The notes beneath the pieces are model-generated. The model was not told the DNA's origin, did no database searches, and saw only the letters and a program-made list of their open reading frames with translations. The position numbers were made by a program, and so were the translations under genes. A DNA stretch of 64,000 nt from Balanoglossus misakiensis (taxonomy: Eukaryota; Animalia; Hemichordata): NCBI GenBank assembly GCA_040954595.2, contig CM082577.2:12247654-12311653 (forward strand). Direction: 5' to 3'. Of this stretch, positions 22,013 through 48,617 are shown one piece after another; within the stretch, counting starts at the first letter, position 1; every line of letters starts with the position of its first letter.

Positions 22013-22075
22013 GCGACAGCATAAAAAACCACGTCGCCGTTCCCTACATCTGATTTTAATCAGATTGGTGCAGAC
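22013..22075. mobile_element. Half copy of the 8498-8585 palindromic MITE
   Basis: ggcgacagcataaaaaa.cacgtcgccgttccctacatctgattttaatcagattgg is nearly identical to 8528-8585. Confidence 0.8.
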
Positions 22076-25000
22076 CATGTTAAAAATTGTTGAAAATAAC
22101 ACCAAATATTAATTAAAGCTGCAAGCAGCGTTGGCGGGGCACAAGCGGTTCCCATGGTGACCAGCAAATGCCACGGCTGTATCTGCTGGGGATACCAAGA
22201 TATGGGAAAGTAGGTCAAAGGTCACCTGAGGTCACCCCAAATTTGGGCAAAAAATTGGACCCCATTCTAGTCTAGATCCAACAAAAAACGAGACCCCTAG
22301 CCCTATTGGTTCGCCTGCAATTAGGTATGCACATAATTAATGAGGTCTTGTGTAAGACTCCATTATGTGCTCAATACCCATAAAAGCCAGGGCTCTAACT
22401 GCTGTGGAGGCTGAGATATGGGAAAGTAGATCAAAGGTCACCCAAGGTCACCCAAAATTAGGGCATAAAATTTTGACCCCAGACTGTGCCATGTCCAACC
22501 AATACCAGACCTCTAGCCCTATTGGGTAGCATGGAATTAGATATGCAGAAAAATGATGTTTCAGAAATAGGTCAAAGGTCATTGCCAAAATTACCAAAAT
22601 ATTTGTGTCATGTCCTGGCAGCATTGGTACCCATGTCCACAAAATTCATGACTGTGGTGCTTTTACAAGAGGAGGTATGGGGAATATGCATATATAATTA
22701 GTTGTTTTAAAACTGGGTCAAAGGTCATGTGAAAATTGCCCCGAAAAATTGTGACAACTTCCGGTCATATGATGACTCATATCCAAAAAAAGAATTTCCG
22801 TGCTGTCAATATTTTGGCTACAAAAAGGAATTTATATTTTTCAATGGTTTTCCGAAAATCCAACATGGCCGCCATAATGATCGACCAATCACAGTGCGCT
22901 TCGCAAACTTGATAGACATAGGTTAGGTGACCACATGCCCCAAATCCCGTGACTCGGCAATCGCTGGTTCTGGAGAAGAAGATTTTTAAAGTTTTAAGTA
23001 CTTTTTCAGAAAAACAATTGTAGCAAAAAAACTTTATGTGTGACGTCATGATTTCAATGGGGTAAAATGATGGACAGAAGGTAGGCTACCTGCACACCAA
23101 ATTTGAACTCGATCGGCCCAGTAGTTTTTGAGAAGGACTCGTTTAACGATTTTCAGGAAATCCAATATGGCCGCCAGGTCACGTGACTAATTAAATATTC
23201 ACGAGCCACTGCACGTCTACTCATTGGCCCCTATCACCCTACCAAGTTTCAGCCCCCTAGGTGCTGTGGTTTTCCAGATCTACCTGGCCGAATTTCTCGG
23301 AAGAAGAAGAATAATAATAATAATAATTAAAGCTGCAAGCAGCGTTGGCGGGGCACAAGCGGTTCCCATGGTGACCAGCAAATGCCACGGCTGTATCTGC
23401 TGGGGATACCAAGATATGGGAAAGTAGGTCAAAGGTCACCTGAGGTCACCCCAAATTTGGGCAAAAAAATTGGACCCCATACTAGTCTAGATCCAACAAA
23501 AAACCAGACCCCTAGCCCTATTGGTTCGCCTGCAATTAGGTATGCACATAATTAATGAGGTCTTGTGTAAGACTCCATTATGTGCTCAATCCCCATAAAA
23601 GCCAGGGCTCTAACTGCTCTGGATGCTGAGATATGGGAAAGTAGATCAAAGGTCACCCAAGGTCACCCAAAATTTGGGCATAAAATTTTGACCCCAGAGT
23701 GGGCCATGTCCAACCAATACCAGACCTCTAGCCCTATTGGGTAGCATGGAATTAGATATGCAGAAAAATGATGTTTCAGAAATAGGTCAAAGGTCATTGT
23801 CAAAATTACCAAAATATTTGTGTCATGTCCTGGCAGCATGGGTACCCATGTCCACAAAATTCATGACTGTGGTGCTTTGACAAGAGGAGGTATGGGGAAT
23901 ATGCATATATAATTAGTTGTTTTAAAACTGGGTCAAAGGTCATGTGAAAATTGCCCTGAAAAATTGTGACAACTTCCGGTCATATGATGACTCATATCCA
24001 AAAAAATAATTTCCATGCTGTCAACATTTTGGCTACAAAACGGAATTATCACTTTTCAATGGTTTTCCGAAAATCCAACATGGCCGCCATAATGATCGAC
24101 CAATCACAGTGCGCTTCGCAAACTTGATAGACATAGGTTAGGTGACCACATATCCCAAATCCCGAGACTCGGTAACCGCTGGTTCTGGAGAAGAAGATTT
24201 TTAAAGTTTTAAGTAGTTTTTCAGAAAAACAATTGTAGCAAAAAAACTTTATGTATGACGTCATGATTTCAATGGGGTAAAATGATGGACAGAAGGTAGG
24301 CTACCTGCACACCAAATTTGAACTCGATCAGCCCAGTGGTTTTTGAGAAGGACTCATTTAACGATTTTCAGGAAATCCAATATGGCCGCCAGGTCACGTG
24401 ACTAATTAAATATTCACGGGCCACTGCACGTCTACTCATTGGCCCCTATCACCCTACCAAGTTTCAGCCCCCTAGGTGCAGCGGTTTTCCAGATCTACCT
24501 GGCCGAATTTCTCGGAAGAAGAAGAATAATAATAATTAAAGCTGCGAGCAGCATTGTCGGGCCCAAGCGCTGATCTTGAATTATATATGCACAGTATGAA
24601 TGAGAAGAAACAGAATTTTCTATCGGATGTATTATCTCATGACATAACAAGGATGTGTGTATTTTTGCTGCTGAAATAGGGTGAAGTAGGTCAAAGGTCA
24701 CCTGAGGTCACCCAACATTTGGGCAAAAAATTTTGACCCATGCTGGGCCATGTCCAACAAAAACCAAAACTCTAGCTCTATTGGTTCGCGTGTAATTAGG
24801 TATGTGCATATTTAATGAGGTCAGCAGGTGTCACAGGTGACCCAAAAATTTGGCTTTACATTTAGGTCCCATCCTGCCAAATGCCAAGGCTGTATCTGCT
24901 CTGGATGTTGAGATATGCGAAAGTAGGTCAAAGGTCACCAGAGGTCACCCAACATTTGGGCAAACAATTTTGATCCCATACTGGTCCATGACCAACAAAA

Positions 25001-27987
25001 ACCAAACCTCTAGCTCTATTGGTTCGCCTGTAATTAGCTATGCACATAATTAATGAGGTCAACAGAGGTCAAAGGGGTCATGAAAAGTAGCAAAAATATT
25101 TGGATCACACACTAATCCACATGCATCAAAAACCAAACATCTAGCCCTATAGGTTAGCCTGGAAATAGATATGCAGAAATAACGTGTGAAAAGTAGGTCA
25201 AAGGTCATGTGAAAAATCGCCAAAAATTTGTAACATATTTTAGTCATATGACGATTGATATCCATGAAAAGAATTTGTATGCTATCAATTCTTAGACTAG
25301 GAAAAGGAATTTCAATTTTTCACTGCTTTTTACAAAATCCAATATGGCCGCCATAATCTTCGACCAATCACAATGCTCTTTGCAAACTTGATAGACATCA
25401 GTGTTGTGACCATACTCCCCGAATCTTGCGACTCAGTTATCGCCCGTTCTGGAGAAGAAGATTTTGGGAGTTTTACTATGGTTTTTCGAAAATCCAATAT
25501 GGCCGCCATAATCTTCGACCAATCACAATGATCTTCGCAAACTTGATAGACCTCAGTTAGGAGACCCCATACCCCAAACCGCGTGACTCGGTTATCGCCG
25601 GTTCTGGAGAAGAAGATTTTTGAAATTTTGACCAGATTTCAGAAAAACAACTGTAGCAAAAAAACTGCAACATTGACAGCAAAATATCCAATTACAAAAA
25701 TGATGGGCAGAAGGTACACTACCAGCACGCCAAATTTGAAGTCGATCTGACTTGTAGTTTCTGAGATCTGAGATTTGCATTTTTTCAGAAAATCCAATAT
25801 GGCCGCCAGGTCACGTGACTAATTAAGTATTCACAAGTCACTGCACATCTACTCATAGACCTTGACCACTGTAGCAAGTTTGAGCAGTGTACCTGCAGTA
25901 GTTTCAGAGATTTAGTTGGCCGAAGAATTGACACAAGAAAAAAGAAAGAAAGAAAGAAAGAAAGAAAAACCCCAACGAAACCAATAGGGCCCAAGCGCAA
26001 GCAAGCGCTTGGGCCCTAATTAAAGCTGCAAGCAGCATTGTCCGGGCCCAAGCTCTATTATCTGATCTGATTATTAGATATGCACATAATTAATGAGTAG
26101 AAACATAATGCTGTGTTTTATCCCATGAAATATCAAGGTTATATCTAGGTTTGGTGTTGACATAGTATTAAGTAGGTCAAAGGTCACCCAGAGGTCACCA
26201 ATTATTTGGGCAGAATATTTTGACCCATAGTGGTCTATGTCCAACAATAACCAGATCTCTAGCCCTTTTGGTTAGCCCGGAATTAGGTATGCACATAAAT
26301 AATGAGTAAAGCAGGTGTCACAGGTGACACAAAACTTTGGCTTTTCATTATGGCCCCATACCTCCAAATGCCAACGCTGTACCTGCTTTGGATGCCGAGA
26401 TATGCAAAAGTAGGTCAAAGGTCATCTGAGGTCACCCAAAATTTTGGCAGAAAATTTTGACCCATAGTGGTCCATGTCCAACAAAAACCAGACCTCTAGC
26501 CATTTTGGTTAGCCCGGAATTAGGTATGCACATAAATAATGAGTAAAGCAGGTGTCACAGGTGACCCAAAACTTTGGCTTTTCATTATGGCCCCATACCT
26601 CCAAACGCCAAGGCTGTATCTGGTGTGGATGTCGAGATATGCAAAAGTAGGTCAAAGGTCACCCGAGGTCACCCAACATTTGGGCAAAATATTTTGACCC
26701 CATACTGGTCCATGTATAACAAAAACAAAACCTCTAGGTCTATTGGTTCATCTGTAATTAGGTATATGCATATTTAATGAGGTCAGCAGAGGTCAAAGGG
26801 GTCATGAAAAGTAGCAAAATTTTTTGATCACATACAAATCCACATACATCAAAAACCAAACTTATAGCCCTATTGGTTAGCCTGGAATTAGATATGCAGA
26901 AAAATGATGCGTCAAAAGTAGGTCAAAGGTCATTGCCAAAATTACCAAAATATTTATAGGTTATTCTTGTCATATGATGATTCATATCCATAAAAAGAAT
27001 TTCTGTGCTATCAATTTTTGGGCTAGAAAAGGAATTTTTACTTTTTAATCGTTTTTCACAAAATCCAATATGGCCGCCATAATCTTCGACCAATCACATT
27101 CCCCTTCGCAAACTTGATAGACATCTGTTTAATGACCACACACACCAAATCTTGTGACTCGGTTATTGCCCGTTGTGGAGAAGAAGATTTTTGAAGTTTT
27201 ACTATGGTTTTTCGAAAATCCAATATGGCCGCCATAATCTTCGACCAATCACAATGATCTTCGCAAACTTGATAGACATCAGTTAGGTGACCACATACCC
27301 CAAACGGCGTGACTCGGTTATCGCCGGTTCTGGAGAAGAAGATTTTTGAAATTTTGACCAGATTTCAGAAAAACAACTGTCGCAAAAAAACTGCAACATT
27401 GACAGCAAAATATCCAATTACAAAAATGATGGGCAGAGGGTATACTACCAGCACACCAAATATGAAGTCGATCTGACTTGTAGTTTCTGAGATCTGAGAT
27501 TTGCATTTTTTCAGAAAATCCAATATGGCCGCCATGTCACGTGACTAATTAAGTATTCACAAGTCACTGCACATCTACTCATTGACCTTGACCACTGTAG
27601 CAAGTTTGAGAACTGTACCTGCAGCGGTGTCTGAGATCTAGAGCGCGAAAGAAGTGAACCAAGAATAAAGAAAGAAAGAAAGAAAGAAAGAAAAACCCCA
27701 ACGAAACCAATACGGGCCCAAGCCTGGCTTGGCTTGGGCCCGTAATTAAAGCTGCAAGCAGCATTGTCCGGGCCCAAGCTCTATTATCTGATCAGATTAT
27801 TAGATATGCACATAATCAATGAGTAGAAACATAATGCTGTGTTTTATCCCATGAAATATCAAGGTTATATCTATGTTTGGTGTTGATATAGTGTTAAGTA
27901 GGTCAAAGGTCACCCAGAGGTCACCCACAATTTGGGCAGAAAATTTTGATCCATAGTGGTCCATGTCCAACAAAAACCAGACCTCTA

Positions 27988-29003
27988 GCCCTTTTGGTTA
28001 GCCCGGAATTAGGTATGCACATAAATAATGAGTTAAGCAGGTGTCAAAGGTGACCCAAAACTTTGGCTTTTCATTATGGCCCCATACCTCCAAACGCCAA
28101 GGTTGTATCTGCTGTGGATGTCGAGATATGCAAAAGTAGGTCAAAGGTCACCCGAGATCACCCAACATTTGGGCAAAATATTTTGACCCCATACTGGTCC
28201 ATGTATAACAAAAACAAAACCTCTAGGTCTATTGGTTCATCATTAATTAGGTATGCGCATATTTAATGAGGTCACCAGAGGTCAAAGGGGTCATGAAAAG
28301 TAGCAACATTTTTTGATCACATACAAATCCACATACATTAAAAACCAAACTTATAGCCCTATTGGTAAGCCTGGAATTAGATATGCAGAAAAATGATGCG
28401 TCAAAAGTAGGTCAAAGGTCATTGCCAAAATTACCAAAATATTTATAGCTTATTCTTGTCATATGATGATTCATATCCATAAAAAGAATTTCTGTGCCCT
28501 TTTGGTTAGCCCGGAATTAGGTATGCACATAAATAATGAGTTAAGCAGGTGTCAAAGGTGACCCAAAACTTTGGCTTTTCATTATGGCCCCATACCTCCA
28601 AACGCCAAGGTTGTATCTGCTGTGGATGTCGAGATATGCAAAAGTAGGTCAAAGGTCACCCGAGATCACCCAACATTTGGGCAAAATATTTTGACCCCAT
28701 ACTGGTCCATGTATAACAAAAACAAAACCTCTAGGTCTATTGGTTCATCATTAATTAGGTATGCGCATATTTAATGAGGTCACCAGAGGTCAAAGGGGTC
28801 ATGAAAAGTAGCAACATTTTTTGATCACATACAAATCCACATACATTAAAAACCAAACTTATAGCCCTATTGGTAAGCCTGGAATTAGATATGCAGAAAA
28901 ATGATGCGTCAAAAGTAGGTCAAAGGTCATTGCCAAAATTACCAAAATATTTATAGCTTATTCTTGTCATATGATGATTCATATCCATAAAAAGAATTTC
29001 TGT
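27988..29003. repeat. 508-bp near-perfect tandem duplication inside HINE unit 5
   Basis: Identical ORF translations at 28063 and 28571 (offset 508); junction at 28496. Confidence 0.9.
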
Positions 29004-32000
29004 GCTATCAATTTTTAGGCTAGAAAAGGAATTTTTACTTTTTAATCGTTTTTCACAAAATCCAATATGGCCGCCATAATCTTCGACCAATCACATTCCC
29101 CTTCGCAAACTTGATAGGCACCTGTTTAATGACCACACACATCAAATCTTGTGACTCGGTTATCGCCCGTTCTTGAGAAGAAGATTTTTGAAGTTTTACT
29201 ATGGTTTTTCGAAAATCCAATATGGCCGCCATAATCTTCGACCAATCACAATGATCTTCGCAAACTTGATAGACATCAGTTAGGTGACCACATACCCCAA
29301 ACGGCGTGACTCAGTTATCACCGGTTCTGGAGAAGAAGATTTTTGAAATTTAAGCCAGATTTCAGAAAAAAAATTGTAGCAAAAAAACTGCAACATTGAC
29401 AGCAAAATATCCAATTACAAAAATGATGGGTAGAAGGTAGACTACCTGCACACCAAATTTGAAGTCGATCTGACTTGTAGTTTCTGAGATCTGAGATTTG
29501 CATTTTTTCAGAAAATCCAATATGGCCGCCAGGTCACGTGACTAATTAAAAATTCACAGGTTCAATGCACGACTACTCATTGACCTTGACCACTGTAGCA
29601 AGTTTCAGAAGTGTACCTGCAGTGGTGTCTGAGATCTAGAGCGACAAAGAATTGACACAAGAATAAAGAAAGAAGAAAGAAGAAAGAAGGAAAGACAGAA
29701 TTAAAGCTGCAAGCAGCATTGTCCGGGCCCAAGCTCTATTATCTGATCTGATTATTAGATATGCACATAATTAATGAGTAGAAACATAATGTTGTGTTTT
29801 ATCCCATGAAATATCAAGATTATATCTATGTTTGGTGCTGATATAGTGTTAAGTAGGTCAAAGGTCACCCAGAGGTCACCCACAATTTGGGCAGAAAATT
29901 TTGACCCTTAGTGGTCCATGTCCAACAAAAACCAGACCTCTAGCCCTTTTGGTTAGCCCAGAATTAGGTATGCACATAAATAATGAGTTAAGCAGGTGTC
30001 ACAGGTGACCCAAAACTTTGGCTTTTCATTATGGCCCCATACCTCCAAACGCCAAGGCTGTATCTGCTGTGGATGCTGAGATTTGCGAAAGTAGGTCAAA
30101 GGTCACCAGAGGTCACCCAACATTTGGGTAAAAACATTTGACCCCATACTGGTCCTGTCCAACAAAAACAAAACCTCTAGGTCTATTGGTTCGCCTGTAA
30201 TTAGCTATGCACATAATTAATGAGGTCAGCAGTGGTCAAAGGGGTCGTGAAAAGTAGCAAAATATTTTGATCACACACTCATCCACATACATCAAAAACC
30301 AAACTTATAGCCCTATTGGTTAGCCTGGAATAAGATATGCAGAAAAATGATGCGTCAAAAGTAGGTCAAAGGTCATTGCCAAAATTACCAAAATATTTAT
30401 AGCACATTGTAGTCTTATGATGATTCATATCCATAAAAAGAATTTCTGTGCTATCAATTTTTAGGCTAGAAAGGGAATTTTTACTTTTTAATCGTTTTTC
30501 GCAAAATCCAATATGGCCGCCATAATCTTCGACCAATCACAATGCTCTTTGCAAACTTGATAGACATCAGTATAGTGACCATACTGCCCAAATCTTGTGA
30601 CTCAATTATCGCCGGTTCTTGAGAAGAAGATTTTTGAAGTTTTACTATGGTTTTTCGAAAATCCAATATGGCCGCCAAAATCTTCGACCAATCACAATGA
30701 TCTTCGCAAACTTGATAGACATCAGATAGGTGACCACATACCCCAAACCCCGTGTCTCGGTTATCACCGGTTCTGGAGAAGAAGATTTTTGAAATTTAAG
30801 CCGGATTTCAGAAAAAAAATTGTAGCAAAAAAACTGCAACATTGACAGCATAATTTCCAATTACAAAAATGATGGGCAGAATGTAATCTACCTGCACACC
30901 AAATTTGAAGTCGATCTGACTTGTAGTTTCTGAGATCTGAGATTTGCATTTTTTCAGAAAATCCAATATGGCCGCCAGGTCACGTGACTAATTAAAAATT
31001 CAAGGGTTCAATGCACGACTACTCATTGACCTTGACCACTGTAGAAAGTTTGAGAAGTGTACCTGCAGCGGTGTCTGAGATCTAGAGCGACAAAGAATTG
31101 ACACAAGAATAAAGAAAGAAAGAAAGAAAGAAAGAATATAGCTGCAAGCAGCAATGGCGGGCCCAAGCCAACATAGCACATAGCAACATAGCAATAAGCA
31201 TATCTGCTCTGGATGCCAAGATATGGAAAAGTAGGTCAAAGGTCACCTGAGGTCATGCAAAATTTGGGCGAGAAATTTTGACCCTATACTGGTCCATGTT
31301 CATCAAAAACTAAACCTATAGCCCTATTGGTTAGCCTGGAATTAGGTATGCACATAATTAATGAGGTAGGCAGGTGTCACAGGTGACCCCCCAATTTGGC
31401 TTTTCAATTTTAGTCCCAACCATCCAAACGCCAATTCTGTATCTGCTCTGGATGCCAAGATATGGTTAAGTAGGTCAAAGGTCACCTGAGGTCATGCAAA
31501 ATTTGGGCAATAAATTTTGACCCTATACTGGTCCACGTTCAACAAAAACCAAACCTATAGCCCTATTGGTTAGCCTGGAATTAGGTATGCACATAATTAA
31601 TGAGATATGCAGGTGTCACAGGTGACCCCTATTTTGGCTTTTCAACTTTAGTCCCAACCCTCCAAACGCCAAGTCTGTACCTGCTCTGGATGCCGAGATA
31701 TAGGAAAGTAGGTCAAAGGTCACCTGAGGTCACCCCAAATTTTGGCAAGAAATTTTGACCCTATACTGGTCCATGTCCCACAAGAACGAAACCTCTAGCC
31801 CTCTTAGTTAGCCCAGAATTAGGTATGCACATAATTAATGAGTTAAGCAGGTGTTACAGGTGAGCCTAAAATTGTGCCTTTTATTTTGGTGCCATTGTGC
31901 TCACTGACCAATAGACAGTCACTGTACAGGACTATTGCACAGGCCAGAATTCCACAATAAGACATGGACATAGAGGTATAAGTAAAGGTATAAATTTATT

Positions 32001-35000
32001 AAAAAAATTAATATAAAAAAATCCGTCGATTTTTCATATTATTTTTTTTCGCTTAAAATTATTGACAAATGCTAGTCTAGCTGCACACCAAAGTTGGAGA
32101 TGATTGGCCTAACAGATTTTGAGATATGTATGCATATTTATCCAAAATAATATGTGGTCATAGCTTTACTATGGAAAGTATAGGCCCATGGCTTGGTAAA
32201 AAAATATGAAAAATAATACTTAAAAATCTTCTTCTCAAAATTGGCATGGCCAATGGCCTTGACATTTGGCAAGTAGGACACTGACCACATGGTCCGCAAA
32301 AGTTGCTAAAAGAATTTTGATATCTCCATTCATATGCAAATAAGGCCGATTTGGAAATTTTGCCCATATATGGTCATCAGGTCACGTGACTAATTTAACA
32401 TTCACAAGGGTACTGCACTAGCTCTCATTGGCCTGCACCATTGTGCCAAGTTTGAAATTGTTAGGTTTAGCAGTTTTCCAGATCTACCTCGCCAAAGAAA
32501 ACGACAGAAGAAGAAAAAGAAGAAATATAGCTGCAAGCAGCAATAGCGGGCCCAAGCCAACATAGCACATAGCAACATAGCAATAAGCATATCTACTCTG
32601 GATGTCAAGATATGGTAAAGTAGGTCAAAGGTCAACTGAGTTCATGCAAAATTTGGGCAAGAAATTTTGACCCTATACTGGTCCATGTTCAACAAAAACC
32701 AAACCTATAGCCCTATTGGTTAGCCTGGAATTAGGTATGCACATAATTAATGAGGTAGGCAGGTGTCACAACTGACCCCCAATTTGGCTTTCCAATTTTA
32801 GTCCCAACCCTCCAAACGCCAAGCCTGTACCTGCTCTGGATGCCGAGATCTGGTAAAGTAGGTCAAAGGTCACCTGAGGTCATGCAAAATTTGGGCAAGA
32901 AATTTTGACCCTATACTGGTCCATGTTCAATAAAAACCAAACCTATAGCTCTTTTGGTTAGCCTGGAATTAGGTATGCACATAATTAAGAGATATGCAGG
33001 TGACACAGGTGAGCGCCAATTCGGCTTTTCAATTTTAATCCCAACCCTCCAAACGCCAAGTCTGTACCTGCTCTGGATGCCAAGATATGGTAAAGTAGGT
33101 CAAAGGTCACCTGAGGTCATGCGAAATTTGGGCAAGAAATTTTGACCCTATACTGGTCCATGTTCAACAAAAACCAAACCTATAGCTCTACTGGTTAGCC
33201 TGGAATTAGGTATGCACATAATTAATGAGATATGCAGGTGTCACAGGTGATCCCCATTTTGGCTTTTCAATTTTAGTCACAACCCTCCAAACGCCAAGTC
33301 TGTATCAGCTCTGGATGCCGAGTTATAGGAAAGTAGGTCAAAGGTCACCTGAGGTCACCCAAAATTTTGGCAAGAAATTTTGACCCTGTACTGGTCCATG
33401 TCCCACAAGAACGAAACCGCTAGCCCTCTTAGTTAGCCCAGAATTAGGTATGCACATAATTAATGAGTTAAGCAGGTGTTACAGGTGAGCCTAAAATTGT
33501 GCCTTCTATTTTGGTTCCATTGTGCTCACTGACCACAAGACAGTCACTGTACAGGACTATTGCACAGACCAGAATTCCACAATAAGACATGGACATAGCT
33601 TAACCATAGAGGTATAATTAAAGGTATAAATTTCATAAGAAAATTAATATAAAAAAATCGGTCGATTTTTCATATTATTTTTTTTCGCTTAAAATTATTG
33701 ACAAATACTAGGCTAGCTGCACACCAAAGTTGGAGATGATTGGCCAAACAGATTTTGAGATATGTATGCATATTTATCCAAAATAATATGTGGTCTTAGC
33801 TTTACTATGGAAAGTATAGGCCCATGGCTTGGTCAAAAAATATGAAAAATAATACTTAAAAATCTTCTTCTCAAAATTGGCATGGCCAATGTCCTTGACA
33901 TTTGGCATGTAGGACACTGACCACATGGTCCGCAAAAGTTGCTAAAAGAATTTTGATATCTCCATTCATATGCAAATAAGGTCGATTTGAAAATTTTGCC
34001 CATATATGGTCATCAGGTCACGTGACTAATTAAACATTCACAAGGGTACTGCACTAGCTCTCATTGGCCTGCACCATTGTGCCAAGTTTGAAATTGGTAG
34101 GTTTAGCAGTTTTCCAGATCTACCTCTCCAAAGAAACGACAGAAGAAGAAAAAGAAGAAGTAGAAGAATATAGCTGCAAGCAGCAATAGCGGGCCCAAGC
34201 CAACATGCACATAGCAACATAGGAATAAGCATATCTGCTCTTGATGCCAAGATATGGTAAAGTAGGTCAAAGGTCAACTGAGGTCATGTTATATTTCGGC
34301 AAGAAATTTTTACCGTATACTGGTCCATGTTCAACAAAAACCAAACCTATAGCCCTATTGGTTAGTCTGGAATTAGGTATGCACATAATTAATGAGATAT
34401 GCAGGTGCCACAGGTGACCTCCAATTTTGGCTTTTCACTTTCAGTCCTAACCCTCCAAACGCCAAGTCTGTACCTGCTCCGGATGCCAAGATATGGTAAA
34501 GTAGGTCAAAGGTCACCTGAGGTCATGCAAAATGTGGGCAAGAAATTTTGACCCTATACTGGTCCATCTTCAACAAAAACCAAACCTATAGCCCTATTGG
34601 TTAGCTTGGAATTAGGTATGCACATAATTAATGAGGTAGGCAGGTGTCACAGGTGACCCCCAATTTTGGCTTTTCAATTTTAGTCCCAACCCTCCAAACG
34701 CCAAGTCTGTACCTGCTCTGGATGCCAAGATCTGGTAAAGTAGGTCAAAGGTCACCTGAGGTCATGCAAAATTTGGGCAAGTAATTTTGACCCTATACTG
34801 GTCCATGTTCAACAAAAACCAAACCTGTAGCCCTATTGGTTAGCCTGGAATTAGGTATGCACATAATTAATGAGATATGCAGGTGTCACAGGTGAGCCCA
34901 AAATTTTGCCTTTTATTTTGGTCCCATTCTGCTTACTGGCCAATAGACAGTCATTTTACAGGACCATTGCACAGACCAGAATTCCACAATAAGAAGTGGA

Positions 35001-38000
35001 CATAGCTTAACTATGGAGGTATAAGTAAAGGTTTAAATTTAATAAAAAAATTAATATAAAAAAATCCGTCGATTTTTCATATTATTTTTTTTCGCTTAAA
35101 ATTATTGACAAATGCTATTCTAGCTGCACACCAAAGCTGGAGATGATTGGCATAACAGATTTTGAGATATGTATGCATATTTATCCAAAATAATATGTGG
35201 TCATAGCTTTACTATGGAAAGTATAGGCCCATGGCTTGGTAAAAAAATATGAAAAATAATACTTAAAAATCTTCTTCTCAAAATTGGCATGGCCAATGGC
35301 CTTGACATTTGGCAAGTAGGACACTGACCACATGGTCCGCAAAAGTTGCTAAAAGAATTTTGATATCTCCATTCATATGCAAATAAGGCCGATTTGGAAA
35401 TTTTGCCCATATATGGTCATCAGGTCACGTGACTAATTTAACATTCACAAGGGTACTGCACTAGCTCTCATTGGCCTGCACCATTGTGCCAAGTTTGAAA
35501 TTGTTAGGTTTAGCAGTTTTCCAGATCTACCTCTCCAAAGAAAATGACAGAAGAAGAAAAAGAAGAAGAAGTAGAAGAAAAACCCCAGTAATACCAATAG
35601 GGCCCAAGCCTGCTGGGCTTGGGCCCTAAATATAGCTGCAAGCAGCGATGACGGGCACAAGCTTAAGCCGAAGGTCAAAGGTCATATGTGGTCACCCAAA
35701 ATTTGGGCAAAAAATGTTGATCCCATACTAGTCCAGGTCCAACAAAAACCAGACCTCTAGCCCTATTGGTTTGTCTGAAATTATATATGCGCATAATTAA
35801 TTATGTAAAGTGTAAGACTCCATTAATAGTTCGATCCATCCAAACATAAATGCTGTACCTGTTCTGGATGCCGAGATATAGGAAAATGGGTCAAAGGTCA
35901 TGTGAGGCCACTTGAAAGTTGGGCAAAACATTTTAACCCCATACTAGTCCAGGTCCAAGAAAAACCAGACATCTAGCCCTATTGGTTCGCCTAGAATTAG
36001 ATATGCACATAATTAATGAGGTAAAGTATAAGGCTCCATTAGGAGTCACAACCCTCCAAATGCCAAAGCTGTATCTGCGCTGGTTGCCGAGTTATGGTAA
36101 AGTAGGTCAAAGGTCACCTGAGGTCACCCAAAAATTGGGCAAAAATGTTTGATCCCATACTGGTCCATGTTTAACAAAAATCAAACCTCTAGCCCTATTT
36201 GCTAGCCTGGAATTAGGTATGCACATAATTAATGAGATATGCAGGTGTCACAGGTGACCTTCAATTTTGTCTTTTCAATTTTAGTCACAACCCTCCAAAC
36301 GCCAAGTCTGTACCTGCTGTGGATGCCGAGATATATGAAAGTAGGTCAAAGGTCACCTGAGGTCACCCAAAATTTGGGCAAAAATTTTTGATCCCATACT
36401 GGTCCATGTCCCACAAGAACAAAACCTCTAGCCCTATTAGTTAGCCTGGAATTAGGTATGCACATAATTAATGAGTTAAGCAGGTGTTACAGGTGAGCCC
36501 AAAATTTTGCCTTTTATTGTGGTCCCATTCTGCTCACGGGCCAATAGAGAGTCACTGTACAGGACCATTGCACAGCCAACCTGGACATAGCGTGATAGCT
36601 TAACTATAGAAAGTATAGGCCTATGGCTGGGTCCAAAAATATGAAAAATAAAAAAATCTTCTTCTCAAAATAGACTTGGCCCACGGCCTTGACATTTGGC
36701 ATGTAGGACACTGACCACATGGTCCGCAAAAATCGCTAAAAGAATGTTGATATCTCCATTCATATGCAAATTAGGCCCATTTGAAAACTTTGCCCATATA
36801 TGGTCATCAGGTCATGTGACTAATTACACATTCACGAGGGTACTGCACGAGCTCTCATAGACCTGCACCATTGTGCCAAGTTTGAGATTCGTAGCTTCAG
36901 CCATTTCCAAGATCCTAGTTGGCAAAAAAACTGCACAAGAAAAAGAAGTAGAAGAAAAAACAGGGTAAAACCAATAGGGCACAAGCGCCTGAGGGCGCTT
37001 GTGCCCTAAGAAGAAGTAGAAGAATATAGCTGCAAGCAGCGATGACGGGCCCAAGCTTAAGCCGAAGGTCAAAGGTCATATGTGGTCACCCAAAATTTGG
37101 GCAAAAATTTTTGATCCCATACTGGTCCATGTCCCACAAGAACAAAACCTCTAGCCCTATTAGTTAGCCTGGAATTAGGTATGCACATAATTAATGAGTT
37201 AAGCAGGTGTTACAGGTGAGCCCAAAATTTTGCCTTTTATTGTGGTCCCATTCTGCTCACGGGCCAATAGAGAGTCACTGTACAGGACCATTGCACAGCC
37301 AACGTGGACATAGCGTGATAGCTTAACTATAGAAAGTATAGGCCTATGGCTGGGTCCAAAAATATGAAAAATAAAAAAATCTTCTTCTCAAAATAGACTT
37401 GGCCCACGGCCTTGACATTTGGCATGTAGGACACTGACCACATGGTCTGCAAAAATCGCTAAAAGAATTTTGATATCTCCATTCATATGCAAATTAGGCC
37501 CATTTGAAAACTTTGCCCATATATGGTCATCAGGTCACATGACTAATTAAACATTCACAGGGATACTGCACCAGCTCTCATAGACCTACACCATTGTGCC
37601 AAGTTTGAGATTTGTAGGTTCAGCCGTTTTCAAGATCTACCTGAGCAAAAAAACTACACAAGAAAAAAAAAAAAAAAATATAGCTGCAAGCAGCAATGGC
37701 GGGCCCAAGCCAACATAGCACATAGCAACATAGCAATACGCATATCTGCTCTGGATGCCAAGATATGGTAAAGTAGGTCAAAGGTCACCTGAGGTCATGC
37801 AAAATTTGGGCAAGAAATTTTGACCCTATACTGGTCCATGTTCAACAAAAACCAAACCTATAGCCCTTTTGGTTAGCCTGGAATTAGGTATGCACATAAT
37901 TAATGAGGTAGGCAAGTGTCACAGGTGACCCCCAGTGTTGCCTTTTCAATTTTAGTCCCAACCCTCCAAACGCCAAGTCTGTACCTGTTCTGGATGCCAA

Positions 38001-41000
38001 GATATGGTAAAGTAGGTCAAAGGTCACCTGAGGTCATACAAAATTTGGGCAAGAAATTTTGACCCTATACTGGTCCATGTTCAACAAAAACCAAACCTAT
38101 AGCCCTATTGGTTAGCCTGGAATTAGGTATGCACATAATTAATGAGATATGCAGGTGTCACAGGTGACCCCCATTTTGGCTTTTCAATTTTAGTCCCAAC
38201 CCTCCAAACGCCAAGTCTGTACCAGCTCTGGATGCCGAGATATACGAAAGTAGGTCAAAGGTCACCTGAGGTCACCCAAAATTTTGGCAAGAAATTTTGA
38301 CCCTATACTGGTCCATGTCCCACAAGAACGAAACCTCTAGCCCTCTTAGTTAGCCCAGAAGTAGGTATGCACATAATTAATGAGTTAAGCAGGTGTTACA
38401 GGTGAGCCTAAAATTGTGCCTTCTATTTTGGTGCCATTGTGCTCACTAACCACAAGACAGTCACTGTACAGGACTATTGCACAGACCAGAATTCCACAAT
38501 AAGACATGGACATAGCTTAACCATAGAGGTATAATTAAAGGTATAAATTTCATAAGAAAATTAATATAAAAAAATCGGTCGATTTTTCATACTATTTTTT
38601 TTCGCTTAAAATTATTGACAAATACTAGGCTAGCTGCACACCAAAGTTGGAGATGATTGGCCAAACAGATTTTGAGATATGTATGCATATTTATCCAAAA
38701 TAATATGTGGTCTTAGCTTTACTATGGAAAGTATAGGCCCATGGCTTGGTCAAAAAATATGAAAAATAATACTTAAAAATCTTCTTCTCAAAATTGGCAT
38801 GGCCAATGTCCTTGACATTTTGCATGTAGGACACTGACCACATGGTCCGCAAAAGTTGCTAAAAGAATTTTGATATCTCCATTCATATGCAAAAAAGGCC
38901 GATTTGAAAATTTTGCCCATATATGGTCATCAGGTCATGTGACTAATTAAACATTCACAAGGGTACTGCACTAGCTCTCATTGGCCTGCACCATTGTGCC
39001 AAGTTTGAAATTGGTAGGTTTAGCCGTTTTCCAGATCTAGCTGACCAAAAAAACGACACAAGAAGAAGAAGAAGAAGAAGAAGTAGAAGAAAAACCCCAG
39101 TAATACCAATAGGGCCCAAGCCTGCTGGGCTTGGGCCCTAAAAAAAGATGAAAAACCCCAGTAATACCAATAGGGCACAAGCCTGCTTGGCTTGTGCCCT
39201 AAATATAGCTGCAAGCAGCAATAGCGGGCCCAAGCCAACATAGCACATAGCAACATAGCAATACGCATATCTGCTCTGGATGCCAAGATATGGTAAAGTA
39301 GGTCAAAGGTCACCTGAGGTCATGCAAAATTTGGGCAAGAAATATTGACCCTATACTGGTCCATGTTCAACAAAAACCAAACCTATAGCCCTATTGGTTA
39401 GTCTGGAATTAGGTATGCTCATAATTAATGAGGTAGGCAGGTGTCACACGTGATCCCCAATTTTGGCTTTTCAATTTTAGTCCCAACAATCCAAACGCCA
39501 AGTCTGTACCTGCTCTGGATGCCAAGATCTGGTAAAGTAGGTCAAAGGTCACCTGAGGTCAAGCAAAATTTGGGCAAGAAATTTTGAACCTATACTGGTC
39601 CATGTTCAACAAAAACCAAACCTATAGCCCTATTAGTTAGCTTGGAATTAGGTATGCACATAATTAATGATATATATACAGGTGTCACAGGTGACCCCCC
39701 ATTTTGGCTTTTCAATTTTAGTCCCAACCCTCCAAACGCCAAGTCTGTAACTGCTCTGGATGCCGAGATATAGGAAAGTAGGTCAAAGGACAACTGAGGT
39801 CACTCAAAATTTGGGCAAAAAAATTTGACCCCATACTGGTCAATGTCCCACAAGAACAAAACCTCTAGCTCTATTGGTTAGTCTGATATTAGGTATGCAC
39901 ATAATTAATGAGGTAGACAGGTGTCACAGGTGACCCCCATTTTGGCTTTTCAATTTTAGTCCCAACCCTCCAAACGCCAAGTCTGTACCTGCTCTGGATG
40001 CCGAGATATAGGAAAGTAGGTCAAAGGTCACCTGAGGTCACCCAAAATTTGGGCAAGAAATTTTGACCCTATACTGGTCCATGTCCCACAAGAACGAAAC
40101 CTCTAGCCCTCTTAGTTAGCCCAGAATTAGGTATGCACATAATTAATGAGTTAAGCAGGTGTTACAGGTGAGCCTAAAATTTTGCCTTTTATTTTGGTGC
40201 CATTGTGCTCACTGACCAATAGATAGTCACTGTACAAGACTATTGCACAGACCAGAATTCCACAATAAGACATGGACATAGCTTAACCATAGAGGTATAA
40301 GTAAAGGTATAAATTTAATAAAAAAATTAATATAAAAAAATCGGTCGATTTTTCATAGTATTTTTTTCCGCTTAAAATTATTGACAAATGCTAGTCTAGC
40401 TGCACACCAAAGTTGGAGATGATCGGCCTAACAGATTTTGAGATATGTATGCATATTTATCCAAAATAATATGTGGTCATAGCTTAACTATGTAAAGTAT
40501 AGGCACATGGCTTGGGCGAAAAATATGAAAAATAATACTTAAAAATCTTCTTCTCAAAATTGACATGGCCTATGGCCTTGACATTTGGCATGTAGAACCC
40601 TGGCTATGTGGTCCACAAAGTATCTGAACAGAATTTTGATATCTCCATTCATATGCAAATTAGGCCGATTTTAAAATTTTGCCCATATATGGTCATCAGG
40701 TCACATGACTTATTAAACATTCACAAGGGTACTGCACCAGCTCTCATTGGCCTGCAGCATTGTGCTAAGTTTGAAATTGGTAGGTTCAGCCGTTCTCCAG
40801 ATCTACTTGACAAAAAAAACGGCACAAGAAGAAAAAGAAGAAAAACTCCAGTAAAAACAATAGGGCCCAAGCCTGCTGGGCTTGGGCCCTAAATATAGCT
40901 GCCAAGCAGCAATAGCGGGCACAAGCCAACATAGCACATAGCAACATAGGAACAGGCATATCTGCTCTGGATGCCAAGATATGGTAAAGTAGGTCAAAGG

Positions 41001-44000
41001 TCACCTGAGGTCATGTTAAATTTGGGAAAGAAATTTTGACCCTATACTGGTCCATGTTCAACTTAAACCAAACCTATAGCCCTATTGGTTAGCCTGGAAT
41101 TAGGTATGCACATAATTAATGAGATATGCAGGTGCCACAGGTGACCCCCAATTTTGGCATTTCACTTTCAGTCCCAACCCTCCAAACGCCAAGTATGTAC
41201 TTGCTCTGGATTCCGAGATATATGATAGTAGGTCAAAGGTCACCTGAGGTCATGCAAAATTTGGGCAAGAAATTTTGACCCTATACTGGTCCATGTTCAA
41301 CAAAAACCAAACCTATAGCTCTATTGGTTAGACTGGAATTAGGTATGCACATAATTAATGAGATATGCAAGTGTCACAGGTGAGCGCCAATTTGGCTTTT
41401 CAATTTTAATCCCAACCCTCCAAACGACAAGTCTGTACCTGCTCTGGATGCCAAGATATGGTAAAGTAGGTCAAAGGTCACCTGAGGTCATGCGAAATTT
41501 GGGCAAGAAATTTTGACCCTATACTGGTCCATGTTCAACAAAAACCAAACCTTTAGCCCTATTGGTTAGCCTGGAGTTAGGTATGCACATAATTAATGAG
41601 GTAGACAGGTGTCACAGGTGACCCCCATTTTGGCTTTTCAATTTTAGTCCCAACCCTCCAAACGCCAAGTCTGTACCTGCTCTGGATGCCGAGATATAGG
41701 AAAGTAGGTCAAAGGTCACCTGAAGTCACCCAAAATTTGGTAAACATTTTTGACCCCATACTAGTCCTTGTCACACAAGAACAATACCTCTAGCCCTATT
41801 AGTTAGCCCGGAATGAGGTATGCGCATAATTAATGAGTTAAGCAGGTGTTACAGGTGAGCCCAAAATTTTGCCTTTTATTTTGGTCCCATTCTGCGCACG
41901 GGCCAATAGACAGTCAGTGTACAGGACCATTGCACAGACCAGAATTCTACAATAAGACGTGGACATAGCTTAACCATAGAGGTATAAGTAAAGGTATAAA
42001 TTTCATAAAAAAATTAATATAAAAAAATCGGTCGATTTTTCATATTAATTTTTTTCGCTTAAAATTATTGGCAAATGCTAAGCTACCTGCACACCAAACT
42101 TGGAGTTGATCGGCCCAACATATTTTGAGATATGACTGCATATTCATCCAAAATAAAATGTGGTCAAAGCTTAACTATGTATAGTGTAGGCCGATGGCTT
42201 GGCCGAAAAATATGAAAAATAATACTTAAAAATCTTCTTCTCAAAATTGACAAGGCCTATGGCCTTGACATTTGGCATGTAGAACCCTGACCACATGGTT
42301 CACAAAAGTTGCTAAAAGAATTTTGATATCTCCGTCCATATGCAAATAAGGCCGATTTGAAAATTTTGCCCATATATGGTCATCAGGTCACATGACTTAT
42401 TGAACATTCACGAGGGTACTGCACTAGCTCTCATTGGCCTGCACCATTGTACCAAATTTGAGATTTGTGGGTTCAGCAGTTTTTCAGATCTACCTGGCCG
42501 AAAAAAGTGCCCAAGAAGAAGTAGAAGAAAAAAGCCAACAATACCAATAGGGCACAAGCCTGTGGGGCTTGTGCCCTAAATATAGCTGCAAGCAGCAATA
42601 GCGGGCCCAAGCCAACATAGCACATAGCAACATAGCAATAAGCATATCTGCTCTGGATGCCAAGATATGGTAAAGTAGGTCAAAGGTCACCTGAGGTCAT
42701 GCAAAATTTGGGCAAGAAATTTTAACCCTATACTGGTCCATGTTCAACAAAAACCAAACCTATAGCTCTATTGGTTAGCCTGGAATTAGGTATGCACATA
42801 ATTAATGAGATATGCAGGTGTCACAGGTGAGCGCCAATTTGGCTTTTCAATTTTAATCCCAACCCTCCAAACGCCAAGTCTGTACCTGCTCTGGATGCCA
42901 AGATATGGTAAAGTAGGTCAAAGGTCACCTGAGGTCTTGCGAAATTTGGGCAAGAAATTTTGACCCTATACTGGTCCATGTTCAACAAAAACCAAACCTA
43001 TAGCTCTACTGGTTAGCCTGGAATTAGGTATGCACATAATTAATGAGATATGCAGGTGTCACAGGTGATCCCCATTTTGGCTTTTCAATTTTAGTCCCAA
43101 CCCTCCAAACGCCAAGTCTGTACCTGCTCTGGATGCCGAGATATAGGAAAATAGGTCAAAGGTCACCTGAGGTCACCCAAAATTTGGTAGACATTTTTGA
43201 CCCCATACTAGTCCTTGTCACACAAGAACAATACCTCTAGCCCTATTAGTTAGCCCGGAATGAGGTATTCGCATAATTAATGAGTTAAGCAGGTGTTACA
43301 GGTGAGCCCAAAATTTTGCCTTTTATTTTGGTCCCATTCTGCGCACGGGCCAATAGACAGTCAGTGTACAGGACCATTGCACAGACCAGAATTCTACAAT
43401 AAGACGTGGACATAGCTTAACCATAGAGGTATAAGTAAAGGTATAAATTTCATAAAAAAATTAATATAAAAAAATCGGTCGATTTTTCATATTATTTTTT
43501 TTCGCTTAAAATTATTGGCAAATGCTAAGCTACCTGCACACCAAAGTTGGAGTTGATCGGCCCAACAGATTGTGAGATATGACTGCATATTCATCCAAAA
43601 TAAAATGTGGTCAAAGCTTAACTATGTATAGTATAGGCCGATGGCTTGGCCGAAAAATATGAAAAATAATACTTAAAAATCTTCTTCTCAAAATTGACAA
43701 GGCCTATGGCCTTGACATTTGGCATGTAGAACCCTGACCACATGCTTCACAAAAGTTGCTAAAAGAATTTTGATATCTCCATGCATATGCAAATAAGGCC
43801 GATTTGAAAATTTTGCCCATATATGGTCATCAGGTCACATGACTTATTGAACATTCACGAGGGTACTGCACCAGCTCTCATTGGCCTGCACCATTGTGCC
43901 AAATTTGAGATTTGTGGGTTCAGCAGTTTTTCAGATCTACCTGGCCGAAAAAAGTGCCCAAGAAGAAGTAGAAGAAAAAAGCCAACAATACCAATAGGGC

Positions 44001-47000
44001 ACAAGCCTGCTGGGCTTGTGCCCTAAATATAGCTGCAAGCAGCAATGGCGGGCCCAAGCCAACATAGCACATAGCAACATAGCAATAAGCATATCTGCTC
44101 TGGATGCCAAGATATGGAAAAGTAGGTCAAAGGTCACCTGAGGTCATGCAAAATTTGGGCGAGAAATTTTGACCCTATACTGGTCCATGTTCATCAAAAA
44201 CCAAACCTATAGCCCTATTGGTTAGCCTGGAATTAGGTATGCACATAATTAATGAGGTAGGCAGGTGTCACAGGTGACCCCCCAATTTGGCTTTTCAATT
44301 TTAGTCCCAACCCTCCAAACGCCAAGTCTGTACCTGCTCTCGATGCCAAGATCTGGTAAAGTAGGTCAAAGGTCACCTGAGGTCATGCAAAATTTGGGCA
44401 AGAAATTTTGACCCTGTACTGGTCCATGTTCAACAAAAACAAAACCTATAGCCCTATTGGTTAGCCTGGAATTAGGTATGCACATAATTAATGAGATATG
44501 CAGGTGTCACAGGTGACCCCTATTTTGGCTTTTCAACTTTAGTCCCAACCCTCCAAACGCCAAGTCTGTACCTGCTCTGGATGCCGAGATATAGGAAAGT
44601 AGGTCAAAGGTCACCTGAGTTCACCCCAAATTTGGGCAAGAAATGTTGGCCCTATACTGGTCCATGTCCCACAAGAACGAAACATCTAGCCCTCTTAGTT
44701 AGCCCAGAATTAGGTATGCACATAATTAATGAGTTAAGCAGGTGTTACAGGTGAGCCTAAAATTTTGCCTTTTATTTTGGTGCCATTGTGCTCACTGACC
44801 AATAGACACTCACTGTACAGGACTATCGCACTGACCAGAATTCCACAATAAGACATGGACATAGCTTAACCATAGAGGTATAAGCAAAGGTATAAATTTA
44901 ATAAACAAATTAATATAAAAAAATCTGTTGATTTTTCATATTATTTTTTTCTGCTTAAAATTATTGACAAATGCTAGGCTTGCTGCACACCAAAGTTGGA
45001 GATGATCGGCCTAACAGATTTTGAGATATGTATGCATGTTTATCCAAAATAATATGTGGTCATAGCTTTACTATGTAAAGTATAGGCCCATGGCTTGGTC
45101 AAAAAATATGGAAAATAATACTTAAAAATCTTCTTCTCAAAATTGGCATGGCCAATGGCCTTGACATTTGGCATGTAGGACACTGACCACATGGTCCGCA
45201 AAAGTTGCTAAAAGAATTGTGATATCTCCATTCATATGCAAATAAGGCGGATTTGAAAACTTTGCCCATATATGGTCATCAGGTCACGTGACTAATTAAA
45301 TATTCACAAGGGTACTGCACTAGCTCTCATTGGCCTGCACCATTGTGCCAAGTTTGAAATTGGTAGGTTTAGCAGTTTTCCAGATCTACCTCGCCAAAGA
45401 AAATGACAGAAGAAGAAAAAGAAGAAGAAGTAGAAGAATATACCTGCAAGCAGCAATAGCGGGCCCAAGCCAACATAGCACATAGCAACATAGCAATAAG
45501 CATATCTGCTCTGGATATGGAAAAATATGTCAAAGGTCACCTGAGGTCATGCAAAAATTTGGGCAAGAAATTTTGACCCTATACTAGTCCATGTCCGACA
45601 AAAACCAAACCTATAGCCCTATTGGTTAGCCTGGAATTAGGTATGCACATAATTAATGAGATATGCAGGTGTCACAGGTGACCCCAAACTTTGTCTTTTC
45701 AATTTTAGTCCCAACCCTCCAAACGCCAAGTCTGTACCTGCTCTGGATGCCAAGATATGGTAAAGTAGGTCAAAGGTCACCTGAGGTCATACAAAATTTG
45801 GGCAAGAAATTTTGACCCTATACTGGTCCATGTTCAACAAAAACCAAACCTATAGCCCTATTGGTTAGCCTGGAATTAGGTATGCACATAATTAATGAGA
45901 TATGCAGGTGTCACAGGTGACCCCCATTTCGGCTTTTCAATTTTAGTCCCAACCCTCCAAACGCCAAGTCTGTACCTGCTCTGGATGCCAAGATATGGTA
46001 AAGTAGGTCAAAGGTCACCTGAGGTCATACAAAATTTGGGCAAGAAATTTTGACCCTATACTGGTCCATGTTCAACAAAAACCAAACCTATAGCCCTATT
46101 GGTTAGCCTGGAATTAGGTATGCACATAATTAATGAGATATGCAGGTGTCACAGGTGACCCCCATTTCGGCTTTTCAATTTTAGTCCCAACCCTCCAAAC
46201 ACCAAGTCTGTACCTGCTCTGGATGCCGAGATATAGGAAAGTAGGTCAAAGGTCACCTGAGGTCACCCAAAATTTGGGCAAGAAATTTTGACCCTATACT
46301 GGTCCATGTCCCACAAGAACGAAACCTCTAGCCCTCTTAGTTAGCCCAGAATTAGGTATGCACATAATTAATGAGTTAAGCAGGTGTTACAGGTGAGCCC
46401 AAAATTTTGCCTTTTAGTTTGATGCCATTGTGCTCACTGACCACAAGACAGTCACTGTACAGGACTATTGCACAGACCAGAATTCCACAATAAGACATGG
46501 ACATAGCTTAATCATAGAGGTATAATTAAAGGTATAAATTTAATAAAAAAATTAATATAAAAAAATCGGTCGATTTTTCATATTATTTTTTTTCGCTTAA
46601 AATTATTGACAAATGCTAGGCTAGCTGCACACCAAAGTTGGAGATGATTGGCCAAACAGATTTTGAGATATGTATGCATATTTATCCAAAATAATATGTG
46701 GTCATAGCTTTACTATGGAAAGTATAGGCCCATGGCTTGGTCAAAAAATATGGAAAATAATACTTAAAAATCTTCTTCTCAAAATTGGAATGGCCAATGG
46801 CCTTGACATTTGGCATGTAGGACACTGACCACATGGTCCGCAAAAGTTGCTAAAAGAATTGTGATATCTCCATTCATATGCAAATAAGGCGGATTTGAAA
46901 ATTTTGCCCATATATGGTCATCAGGTCACGTGACTAATTAAACATTCACAAGGGTACTGCACTAGCTCTCATTGGCCTGCACCATTGTGCCAAGTTTGAA

Positions 47001-47099
47001 ATTGGTAGGTTTAGCCGTTTTCAAGATCTAGCTGACCAAAAAAAACGACAGAAGAAGAAGAAGAAAAAGAAGAAGAAGTAGAAGAAAAAAGCCAGTAAT

Positions 47100-47470
47100 A
47101 CCAATAGGGCCCAAGCCTGCTGGGCTTGGGCCCTAAAAAACCCCAGTAATACCAATAGGGCCCAAGCCTGCTGGGCTTGGGCCCTAAAAAACCCCAGTAA
47201 TACCAATAGGGCCCAAGCCTGCTGGGCTTGGGCCCTAAAAAACCCCAACGAAACCAATAGGGCCCAAGCGCTGGTATGCGCTTGGGCCCTAAAAACCCCA
47301 ACGAAACCAATAGGGCCCAAGCGCTGGTATGCGCTTGGGCCCTAATAATAAAGAAAAATTCCAACAATACCAATAGGGGCACAAGCCCGATAGGCTTGTG
47401 CCCCTAATAAAGAAGAAATATTCCAACAATACCAATAGGGGCACAAGCCCGATAGGCTTGTGCCCCTAAT
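47100..47470 (-). repeat. Stack of seven HINE 5'-terminal hairpin modules (3 type C, 2 type B, 2 type A)
   Basis: Hairpins near 47106, 47157, 47208, 47259, 47312, 47375 and 47436, each preceded by ACCAAT. Confidence 0.92.
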
Positions 47471-48617
47471 AAGACTATACTATTATTTATTTATTAATTA
47501 CTGCTACGGACACAACGTCTGAAACAAACTTATTATTCGGTGGTCCCACTCCTGAGAACTAATGATTTAAAATGTTCGCATAGCTACAGTCCAAATAATG
47601 TAGGCATTATATAGGCAAAGTGACGACCATGGAACATCTGTTTGGAGTAGCCTGGTTTCCATACCATAGGCCCTACCCATTGTGTTTTAGATATACTTGT
47701 CGGAGAACAAATAACTGTTATTTGAACTTATATGACCTTGCATCGCCAGGCGGATCCTGATGGAGATCACTTTCAACCAATCAGGCACTTCCCTTACTTT
47801 GCCCAATCACATTTCAGCTCGCCCTCTCAAATGTAGCAATTGGTGCTTGTTATTACGTTCGCCTTGTGTTGATCTGCAACTTTTGGAATTTTTCCGCGCC
47901 AGTTGCATTCCAGCGGTTGAGTTATCAATATTGCTTGTCTTTAGCAATAAAACGTGCTTTTTGCATTGTACGTTTTCCCTGTCCTCGTCGGACCTTTTAA
48001 GCAACCTTGTTCATCTAAATACCGCAACAAGACTCGCACACTTGTGTGTGAGTCTATCTAAAACACACTGGGTATGGAGACTAGTTTGGAGAAACGTGGC
48101 TTGGTATAGCCTAGGCTTGGTAGCGCTGGTTCACTGATTGACTGTGAACAACAGAAATCTATGAACGAACCAAAGAGGGCGTCTGGGTTAATTTTTAACT
48201 GACTGGAAGTAGGACACGGAGGCAGAATTCGGAATAGTTCTTTCTTCGGTAAAAGTAAGTGCTTTCTTGATGAATTCTCCAATTATTCTTGACATATTTG
48301 GAAAATAAGTGCATGAGTAATTATTTGAATTGGATTTTTAAATAGTTTTCCTGCAAAATAATAGTTTAAACGGTATTGTGTTCAGGGGTCACCTGGGGTC
48401 ACTTTAAGTTTAAGTGGCATTTTCAGAAGCTATTTCCTTGTACTAAATTTGGGATCAGGAAAACGTACGTAGCGATAGAAGACAAATAGTATTATTTTTA
48501 GTATTTCGGGTTGTTCAGCTAAATTCATAGTCTGGACTGGAATCATTATGAGTTCTGAAAGTAGTTGAAATTTGTGATCGAATTTATGGCGTTCTCAGAC
48601 CATAGTCCCCTGGGCCA

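Follow-up and report, generated by a model that had tools for sequence, protein, structure and literature searches.

We found 17 non-autonomous HINE copies (Helentron/Helitron2-type) stacked one inside another in a 25-kb block of the genome of the hemichordate Balanoglossus misakiensis, at 22113–47469 of the window analyzed here (64,000 nucleotides of contig CM082577.2, assembly GCA_040954595.2). All the copies lie on one strand, and the nest is seven levels deep. We regard the nested history itself as highly probable, whether the insertions were aimed by hairpins or by sequence only. The fuller reading, that copies entered one after another in separate insertions, the 5′ end (hairpin and T-rich tract) of a resident copy guiding each, is the one we favor, with modest confidence.

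Motif scans, together with a reading of 21500–50000, identified 17 3′ ends in the block, each a short palindrome with a subterminal repeat, and 16 5′ hairpins. The initial annotation, which had treated these as opening and closing brackets, gave the same counts, and all were recovered on the same strand, the element 5′-3′ direction being the minus strand for all 17 units. The palindrome is exact in 14 of the 17 ends, with one-change variants in units 3, 14, and 17, and the hairpin arms are perfect over 10 bp in 16 of 16 stack hairpins; elsewhere in the window no such arms occur except for one partial match at 19122. Nested parsing accounts for every base of the block (25357/25357), as 1[2[3,4,5[6[7[8[9],10 / 11[12],13,14,15,16[17]]]]]], where the slash is a piece of unit 7 left between two insertion blocks. 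Nine of the 16 junctions are internal insertions and the other seven are zero-spacer head-to-tail joins, not nests. Removal of the inserts restores microsatellite phase at the nested sites. The nested structure is real. Its copies fall into four subfamily groups, A, B, C (with variants), and D, the last comprising units 10 and 11.

The outermost copy is unit 1 (family A), with its body at 22113–23326, its 3′ end at 22113, and its displaced 5′ end, a leader and hairpin h16, at 47408–47469. Unit 2 (A; body 23327–24535, displaced 5′ end with h15 at 47346–47407) lies 62 nt inside unit 1. At 62 nt inside unit 2 is a block of three B copies, of which units 3 (24536–26019) and 4 (26020–27745) are intact, unit 4 being head-to-tail with both units 3 and 5, while unit 5 is split (body 27746–29700, h14 at 47293–47345). 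Unit 6 (B; body 29701–31135, h13 at 47239–47292) lies 53 nt inside unit 5, and unit 7 (C; body 31136–32524, h12 at 47188–47238) 54 nt inside unit 6. Unit 7 in turn has two interruptions, at 65 and 51 nt from its own 5′ terminus, and 14 bp of its microsatellite (37010–37023) separate the two insertion blocks. The first of these contains unit 8 (C; 32525–34167), broken at the usual 51-nt site and without a 5′ end, the intact unit 9 (C; 34168–35629) within unit 8, and the intact unit 10 (D; 35630–37009). The second begins with unit 11 (body 37024–37677, h6 at 39142–39202), a shortened chimera of 715 bp that is mostly D-type with its first 200 nt C-like; the intact unit 12 (C; 37678–39141) lies 61 nt inside it. 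There follow three intact head-to-tail copies of a C subfamily, units 13 (39203–40892), 14 (40893–42579), and 15 (42580–44026), and then unit 16 (C; body 44027–45437, h11 at 47137–47187) with the intact unit 17 (C; 45438–47136) 51 nt inside it. All 17 units are on the minus strand. The displaced 5′ ends measure 51–62 nt, and thus share with Fusarium FoHeli elements the feature of short (<200 bp) repeated 5′ ends.

Some long stretches of high identity were noted. Unit 5 contains a 510-bp tandem duplication (27988–29005) that is 100% identical, and which either arose very recently or reflects an assembly error at this place. A run of at least 300 bases is identical between the 5′ bodies of units 7 and 9 (~32190–32490 and 35234–35534), though their 3′ parts differ, and units 8 and 12 are 98–100% identical over ~700 nt. 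The last two cases may be due to young donors in common or to gene conversion within the stack.

The assignment of displaced 5′ ends to bodies follows family type. The last two hairpins are of family-A type, hairpins with the family-B leader stand at 47260 and 47313, hairpins with family-C leaders stand at 47107, 47158, and 47209, and a double hairpin at 39112–39199 closes units 12 and 11, all as the initial annotation had it. The mirror order that it proposed for closing the hairpin-less units was evaluated on 16 units as the correlation between distances among bodies and distances among tails, with the seven displaced tails permuted in all 5040 ways. Mirror order gave r = 0.67, the maximum over the permutations (four tie, two tail pairs being identical; mean 0.20). 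Forward-order pairing gave r = 0.27 and was rejected. Plain last-in-first-out pairing was also rejected: it leaves unit 1 open and shifts the families, and the 14-bp spacer moves the gap to unit 8. That spacer is exactly the portion absent from the unit 7 tract, which therefore resumes after the inserts as had been claimed, and unit 8 already has this portion in its own tract; unit 8 thus closes before 37010 and is the unpaired unit. Unit 9 continues unbroken into its hairpin, so the earlier statement that one of units 8 and 9 is unpaired can be narrowed. The unpaired copy is best taken as unit 8, the two being indistinguishable if two identical 51-bp tails have collapsed, and such a collapse is the likely cause of the missing unit 8 5′ end.

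The termini, folds, and repeats follow the published HINE plan, and support the description of the units as non-coding HINE-type copies. In each, a 5′ hairpin and leader are followed by a T-rich microsatellite, a body containing 238-bp or 155-bp repeats, a 3′ subterminal repeat, and the 3′ palindrome. Folding of three stack hairpins predicted stems of 13–14 bp (z −3.3 to −8.4). The 3′ subterminal repeat is complementary to the 5′ one, its 10-nt core being exact in 14 of 16 paired units, with one mismatch in units 11 and 15. The palindrome has a 4-bp stem in the predicted fold of both stack ends that were folded, no stronger than in shuffled sequences (z 0.5–0.6). Central tandem repeats of 238 and 155 bp and 5′ microsatellite tracts are likewise HINE features. 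Only one frame of at least 120 aa occurs in the block, a chance frame over the hairpin stack, and no autonomous Rep-helicase partner was found in the window. TT is present at all eight measured internal sites and at the outer site, with a boundary ambiguous by one T. There is no consistent target duplication: three of the nine events have no flanking repeat of two bases or more, and the others have only microsatellite phase or A-runs. A TAA duplication was considered and rejected, since it fits three A-tract or outer sites and not the others. All five features examined (5′ hairpin with subterminal inverted repeat, 3′ repeat, 3′ stem-loop, microsatellite and tandem repeats in non-coding sequence, and TT sites without duplication) were therefore found, in agreement with the Helentron-type identity first proposed.

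A solo relative, family E (8773–10705, plus strand), serves as a control outside the stack. It has the same terminal plan, with one hairpin and an unbroken microsatellite, and ~77–81% identity to stack units. An element at 18574–19140 has a 57-nt inverted repeat and 140-bp tandem repeats, and its end is a (TTA)4 tract with a near match to one hairpin arm after it. It may be a decayed HINE 5′ end; homology in the body was not found.

The internal insertions fall in a narrow zone of their hosts. The eight measured sites are 51, 51, 53, 54, 61, 62, 62, and 65 nt from the host 5′ terminus, 20–35 nt past the host hairpin; the ninth, the break in unit 8, is placed by homology at the position corresponding to 51 nt. 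The 51–65 nt zone contains 4.7% of TT sites (both strands, seven hosts). Since the 5′ tract holds 40% of the very T-rich sites, chance placement of eight sites there has a probability of 6e-4 (0.398^8); in hosts 5, 6, 7, 16, and 11 the five measured sites are in the first or second of 9–24 T-runs (≥5 T), at ~5e-6; and all eight sites are in the half of the tract nearer the hairpin (mean quantile 0.28, P = 0.014), these P values being post hoc, with homologous sites treated as independent, so that they give direction rather than exact odds. These positions and the zero-spacer joins support the original proposal that new copies enter either at the 5′ terminus or in the T-rich tract a short way inside it. 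Guests are commonly unlike their hosts (from unit 2 to B, from 6 to 7, and from 11 to 12), and donors therefore lay elsewhere; local self-copying as a general rule was rejected, as a guest is often closer to copies other than its host.

Head-to-tail joins have zero spacer in seven of seven cases. Identity across them is 82.6–94.2% in six and 96.9% for units 14–15, and the latter is a possible concatemer copy. In a rolling-circle concatemer array, neighbors copied from one template would show a single 3′ end against many 5′ ends; here 17 3′ ends are present. Nor is there the FoHeli-type surplus of 5′ ends on one 3′ end, moving as a unit, for each tail matches a body; FoHeli-type chimeras may exist elsewhere in the genome. 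No reciprocal chimeras were found at the head-to-tail joins in a 100-nt window scan.

We compared the right end of the stack with contigs from three runs of one sample in one study (shares 0.48, 0.35, and 0.00). For the region 47075–47530 there were 262 and 427 contigs; the matches listed are 16 records and 12 loose ends (with 675 and 20 further ones), and the following observations are from among them. A hairpin-to-right-flank record is exact over 47445–47496, with depth 24.5. A record of a C hairpin on a C leader has one difference and depth 555 (flank depth 53), and two B-on-B records have one difference each. Several junction types are absent from the window. These include loose ends in which a C hairpin is followed by a unit-13-type leader, an h6-type loop precedes a B leader, or a B-type loop precedes a C leader; a B hairpin also runs into a B-type 3′ end at depth 848 (flank depth 33), if record and loose end are linked as we infer. 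Two of the absent types are at ~10x and ~25x flank depth. Three hairpins are followed by unrelated flank and represent solo copies which, with family E, bear out the expectation that solo copies carry a single hairpin. No contig spans the stack, which is evidence neither way.

At 88% identity the summed contig depth of the element body reaches tens to hundreds of thousands, against ~50–80 in unique flank; these depth sums are not copy numbers, yet the body so far exceeds the flank that the families must be high-copy. A metagenome scan with the hairpin pattern gave no matches, and one with an internal motif gave a single match (L001), judged unrelated.

The same contigs suggest a second allele without the outer 5′ end. 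In one run (X1) 47467 is the first position of the flank record, and from the bin depths a second record likewise ending at 47496 is implied, with depth 23.9; in another (X2) 16–17 letters of a flank record, preceding 47467, do not fit. The last three bases of the left flank are also those of the element end, so that an empty allele would diverge exactly at 47466/47467. This second allele is probably empty, a paralogous site being the alternative. If it is empty, all 17 insertions postdate the split of the two alleles.

The initial annotation read the stack as an archive in which A is oldest, then B, then C. The local part of this stands: a copy inside another must be the younger of the two, so that the order A, then B, then C/D is a valid chronology for nested pairs, though not within head-to-tail blocks, and at this locus only. 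As an age series of families it is not supported on present data. Identities within families overlap (A pair 97.0%, B pairs 88.4–95.7%, C pairs 89.4–98.4%, D 95.7%), hairpin arms are perfect in all 16 cases, and one contig end suggests that a B hairpin on a C leader is present elsewhere. Divergence likewise showed no trend with nesting depth.

How the favored process might work can be outlined. A Rep-helicase transposase supplied in trans would engage the hairpin at a resident 5′ end, and the incoming strand would be joined either at the closest T-run or at the nick site of the terminus. The newcomer would bring a fresh hairpin and tract, renewing the target, while older 5′ ends would be displaced into the stack with their orientation fixed. 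More tentatively, and with somewhat less than even confidence, we propose a general form: that HLE2 transposases land at resident 5′ hairpins across subfamilies and that the nests renew themselves, here to 25 kb and 17 insertions on one haplotype with the other allele empty.

The same nested history could also have arisen with aim by sequence only, the transposase preferring T-runs or T-rich microsatellites anywhere, with self-targeting a by-product and the hairpin uninvolved; we hold this possible, though on the doubtful side. Among published sources, cited throughout from the parts available, HINEs are reported to prefer T-rich sites (PMC4067079; PMC7492417), the reported Helitron2 target (TTTT then T or C; PMC5148889) matches five of the nine internal sites, and the orientation of Paramecium Helitrons has been proposed to follow the targeted repeat strand (PMC13085455). 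Several further points weigh against guidance by the hairpin. Besides the post hoc nature of the P values above, one strand carries 98 of the 108 very T-rich sites, so that strand bias accounts for orientation and the uniform orientation is not separate evidence; no copy has a long T-rich pyrimidine stretch other than the 5′ tract, the first T-run of which matches the Helitron2 target, and sequence may by itself suffice; and the window has nearly no comparable T-rich tract outside HINE copies to serve as control. What the sequence-only explanation leaves over is that the remaining T-runs of the hosts are unused and sites are skewed to the hairpin side of the tract, that seven joins are exact despite a longer T-run on offer, and that neither the outermost stack site nor that of solo E is microsatellite, both being plain AT-rich DNA.

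It is unlikely that rolling-circle concatemers, copying of two-headed chimeras, circle recombination, or unequal exchange made much of the block in place of 16 separate insertions. A head-to-tail join equals a circle junction, two-headed FoHeli copies do transpose (PMC5148889), and the 96.9% identity of units 14–15, the identical stretch shared by units 7 and 9, the chimeric unit 11, and the missing 5′ end all fit such events; the high junction depth in the contigs may likewise reflect copying of two-headed chimeras rather than many separate events. Against this, six of the seven adjacent pairs are below 95% identity, 5′ ends are not in surplus (16 for 17 bodies), the joins lack reciprocal chimeras in the scan described, and microsatellite phase is restored at nested sites. 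Concatemers, chimeras, or recombination may nevertheless be behind single junctions such as 14–15 and the missing end of unit 8. Head-to-tail copies could have joined on either side, which also tempers the account of separate aimed insertions. Least probable of all, and very improbable in our judgment, is that the nesting is only apparent, the product of misassembly or of tandem duplications that affected bodies and hairpins independently. The identical duplication in unit 5, the tandem run formed by the 51–53-bp tails, and the want of a spanning contig are compatible with it. Against it, the units are distinct sequences, the tail family order mirrors that of the bodies, and separately assembled data contain the exact hairpin-to-flank contig and several hairpin-on-leader contigs. 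The sample behind these contigs may be the window's own source, and no listed junction record has 31 letters on both sides, so that they show junction types rather than this locus. Separate insertions aimed by resident 5′ ends remain our preferred account of the block.

The surroundings contain other repeats and genes. A small hairpin repeat (36–41-nt arms) is whole at 8498–8585 and 14625–14751 and partial at ~22030–22070; the partial copy is ~40 bp left of the stack and one whole copy ~190 bp from solo E. An almost perfect (ATGT)62 microsatellite is at 6150–6399. The right flank is partly repetitive at 47680–48120, where summed contig depth is high and loose ends are numerous at 48081. Beyond it, 51460–63553 (plus strand) has the long frames of an immune-receptor-like gene region, including a frame of 23 57-bp repeats, a GT4-conflict glycosyltransferase (PF20706, 1.5e-23), and a 1142-aa frame with 13 84-bp leucine-rich repeats; taken with the repeats of the window, these genes would suit an invertebrate animal.

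Helentron target choice has so far been known only as TT and T-rich; this locus supplies a 15-nt target window and exact junctions, and a local order of subfamily activity readable without a clock. If insertion is end-guided, the clustering of HINEs would be explained and large presence/absence blocks on one haplotype accounted for. Should the hairpin prove to be the landing pad, it would represent an overlooked general targeting rule of animal Helentrons, a source of multi-headed elements, and a natural system for scar-free, orientation-fixed, site-directed integration. Annotation tools that pair nearest termini would mis-call such loci.

Resident copies act as hot spots in other systems: IS911 and IS30 insert beside their own ends, and Zepp and DIRS-1 insert into themselves. 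Their chemistry differs (DDE, retro, tyrosine recombinase), and the analogy is functional only. Closer are the non-autonomous Helentrons HINE/DINE-1 (Thomas et al., 2014; PMC4067079) and oyster Cg_HINE (PMC7492417), which resemble the stack units in their 5′ subterminal inverted repeat, microsatellite, central tandem repeats, 3′ subterminal repeat and palindrome, and in T-rich targets without target duplication. Clustering and side-by-side insertions are mentioned for them (side-by-side in PMC4067079), whereas a position-specific multi-level nest with all partners in place is not described in the available parts. Maize Helitrons (Dong et al., 2011; PMC3288121) also prefer to insert near or inside other Helitrons, with multiple termini arising from nesting; they are Helitron1, and the accessible text reports no fixed position inside the 5′ end. 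Xenopus HelenXT233 (PMC11417382) has two left ends, like the doubled termini here, with no nesting mechanism given in the part seen. Rolling-circle arrays of truncated Helitrons (Xiong et al., 2016, via the review PMC12628747, which treats such arrays and shuffled oyster loci) are also same-strand and joined head-to-tail, but in them a single template gives rise to many 5′ ends with one 3′ end, in contrast to the mostly different subfamilies with their own 3′ ends in the stack.

The nearest precedent is Fusarium FoHeli (Helitron2; Chellapan et al., 2016; PMC5148889), where short extra 5′ ends of 31–85 nt are, as here, attributed to self-insertion, and one copy lies 2 bp from the 5′ end of another. 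As that paper already proposed that elements insert into themselves close to the 5′ end, and that copying then starts at the outer 5′ end and yields multiple 5′ ends, the idea of self-targeting is less new than it was made to appear. An intact multi-level HINE nest was not found in the literature searched, in which coverage of subscription journals was poor. In the available account of FoHeli there are several 5′ ends per 3′ end, with the nested intermediate forming part of a model, whereas in the stack 16 of 17 copies retain both ends, over seven levels and four subfamilies. The locus thus preserves in place the nested intermediate proposed for multi-headed Helitron2 elements.

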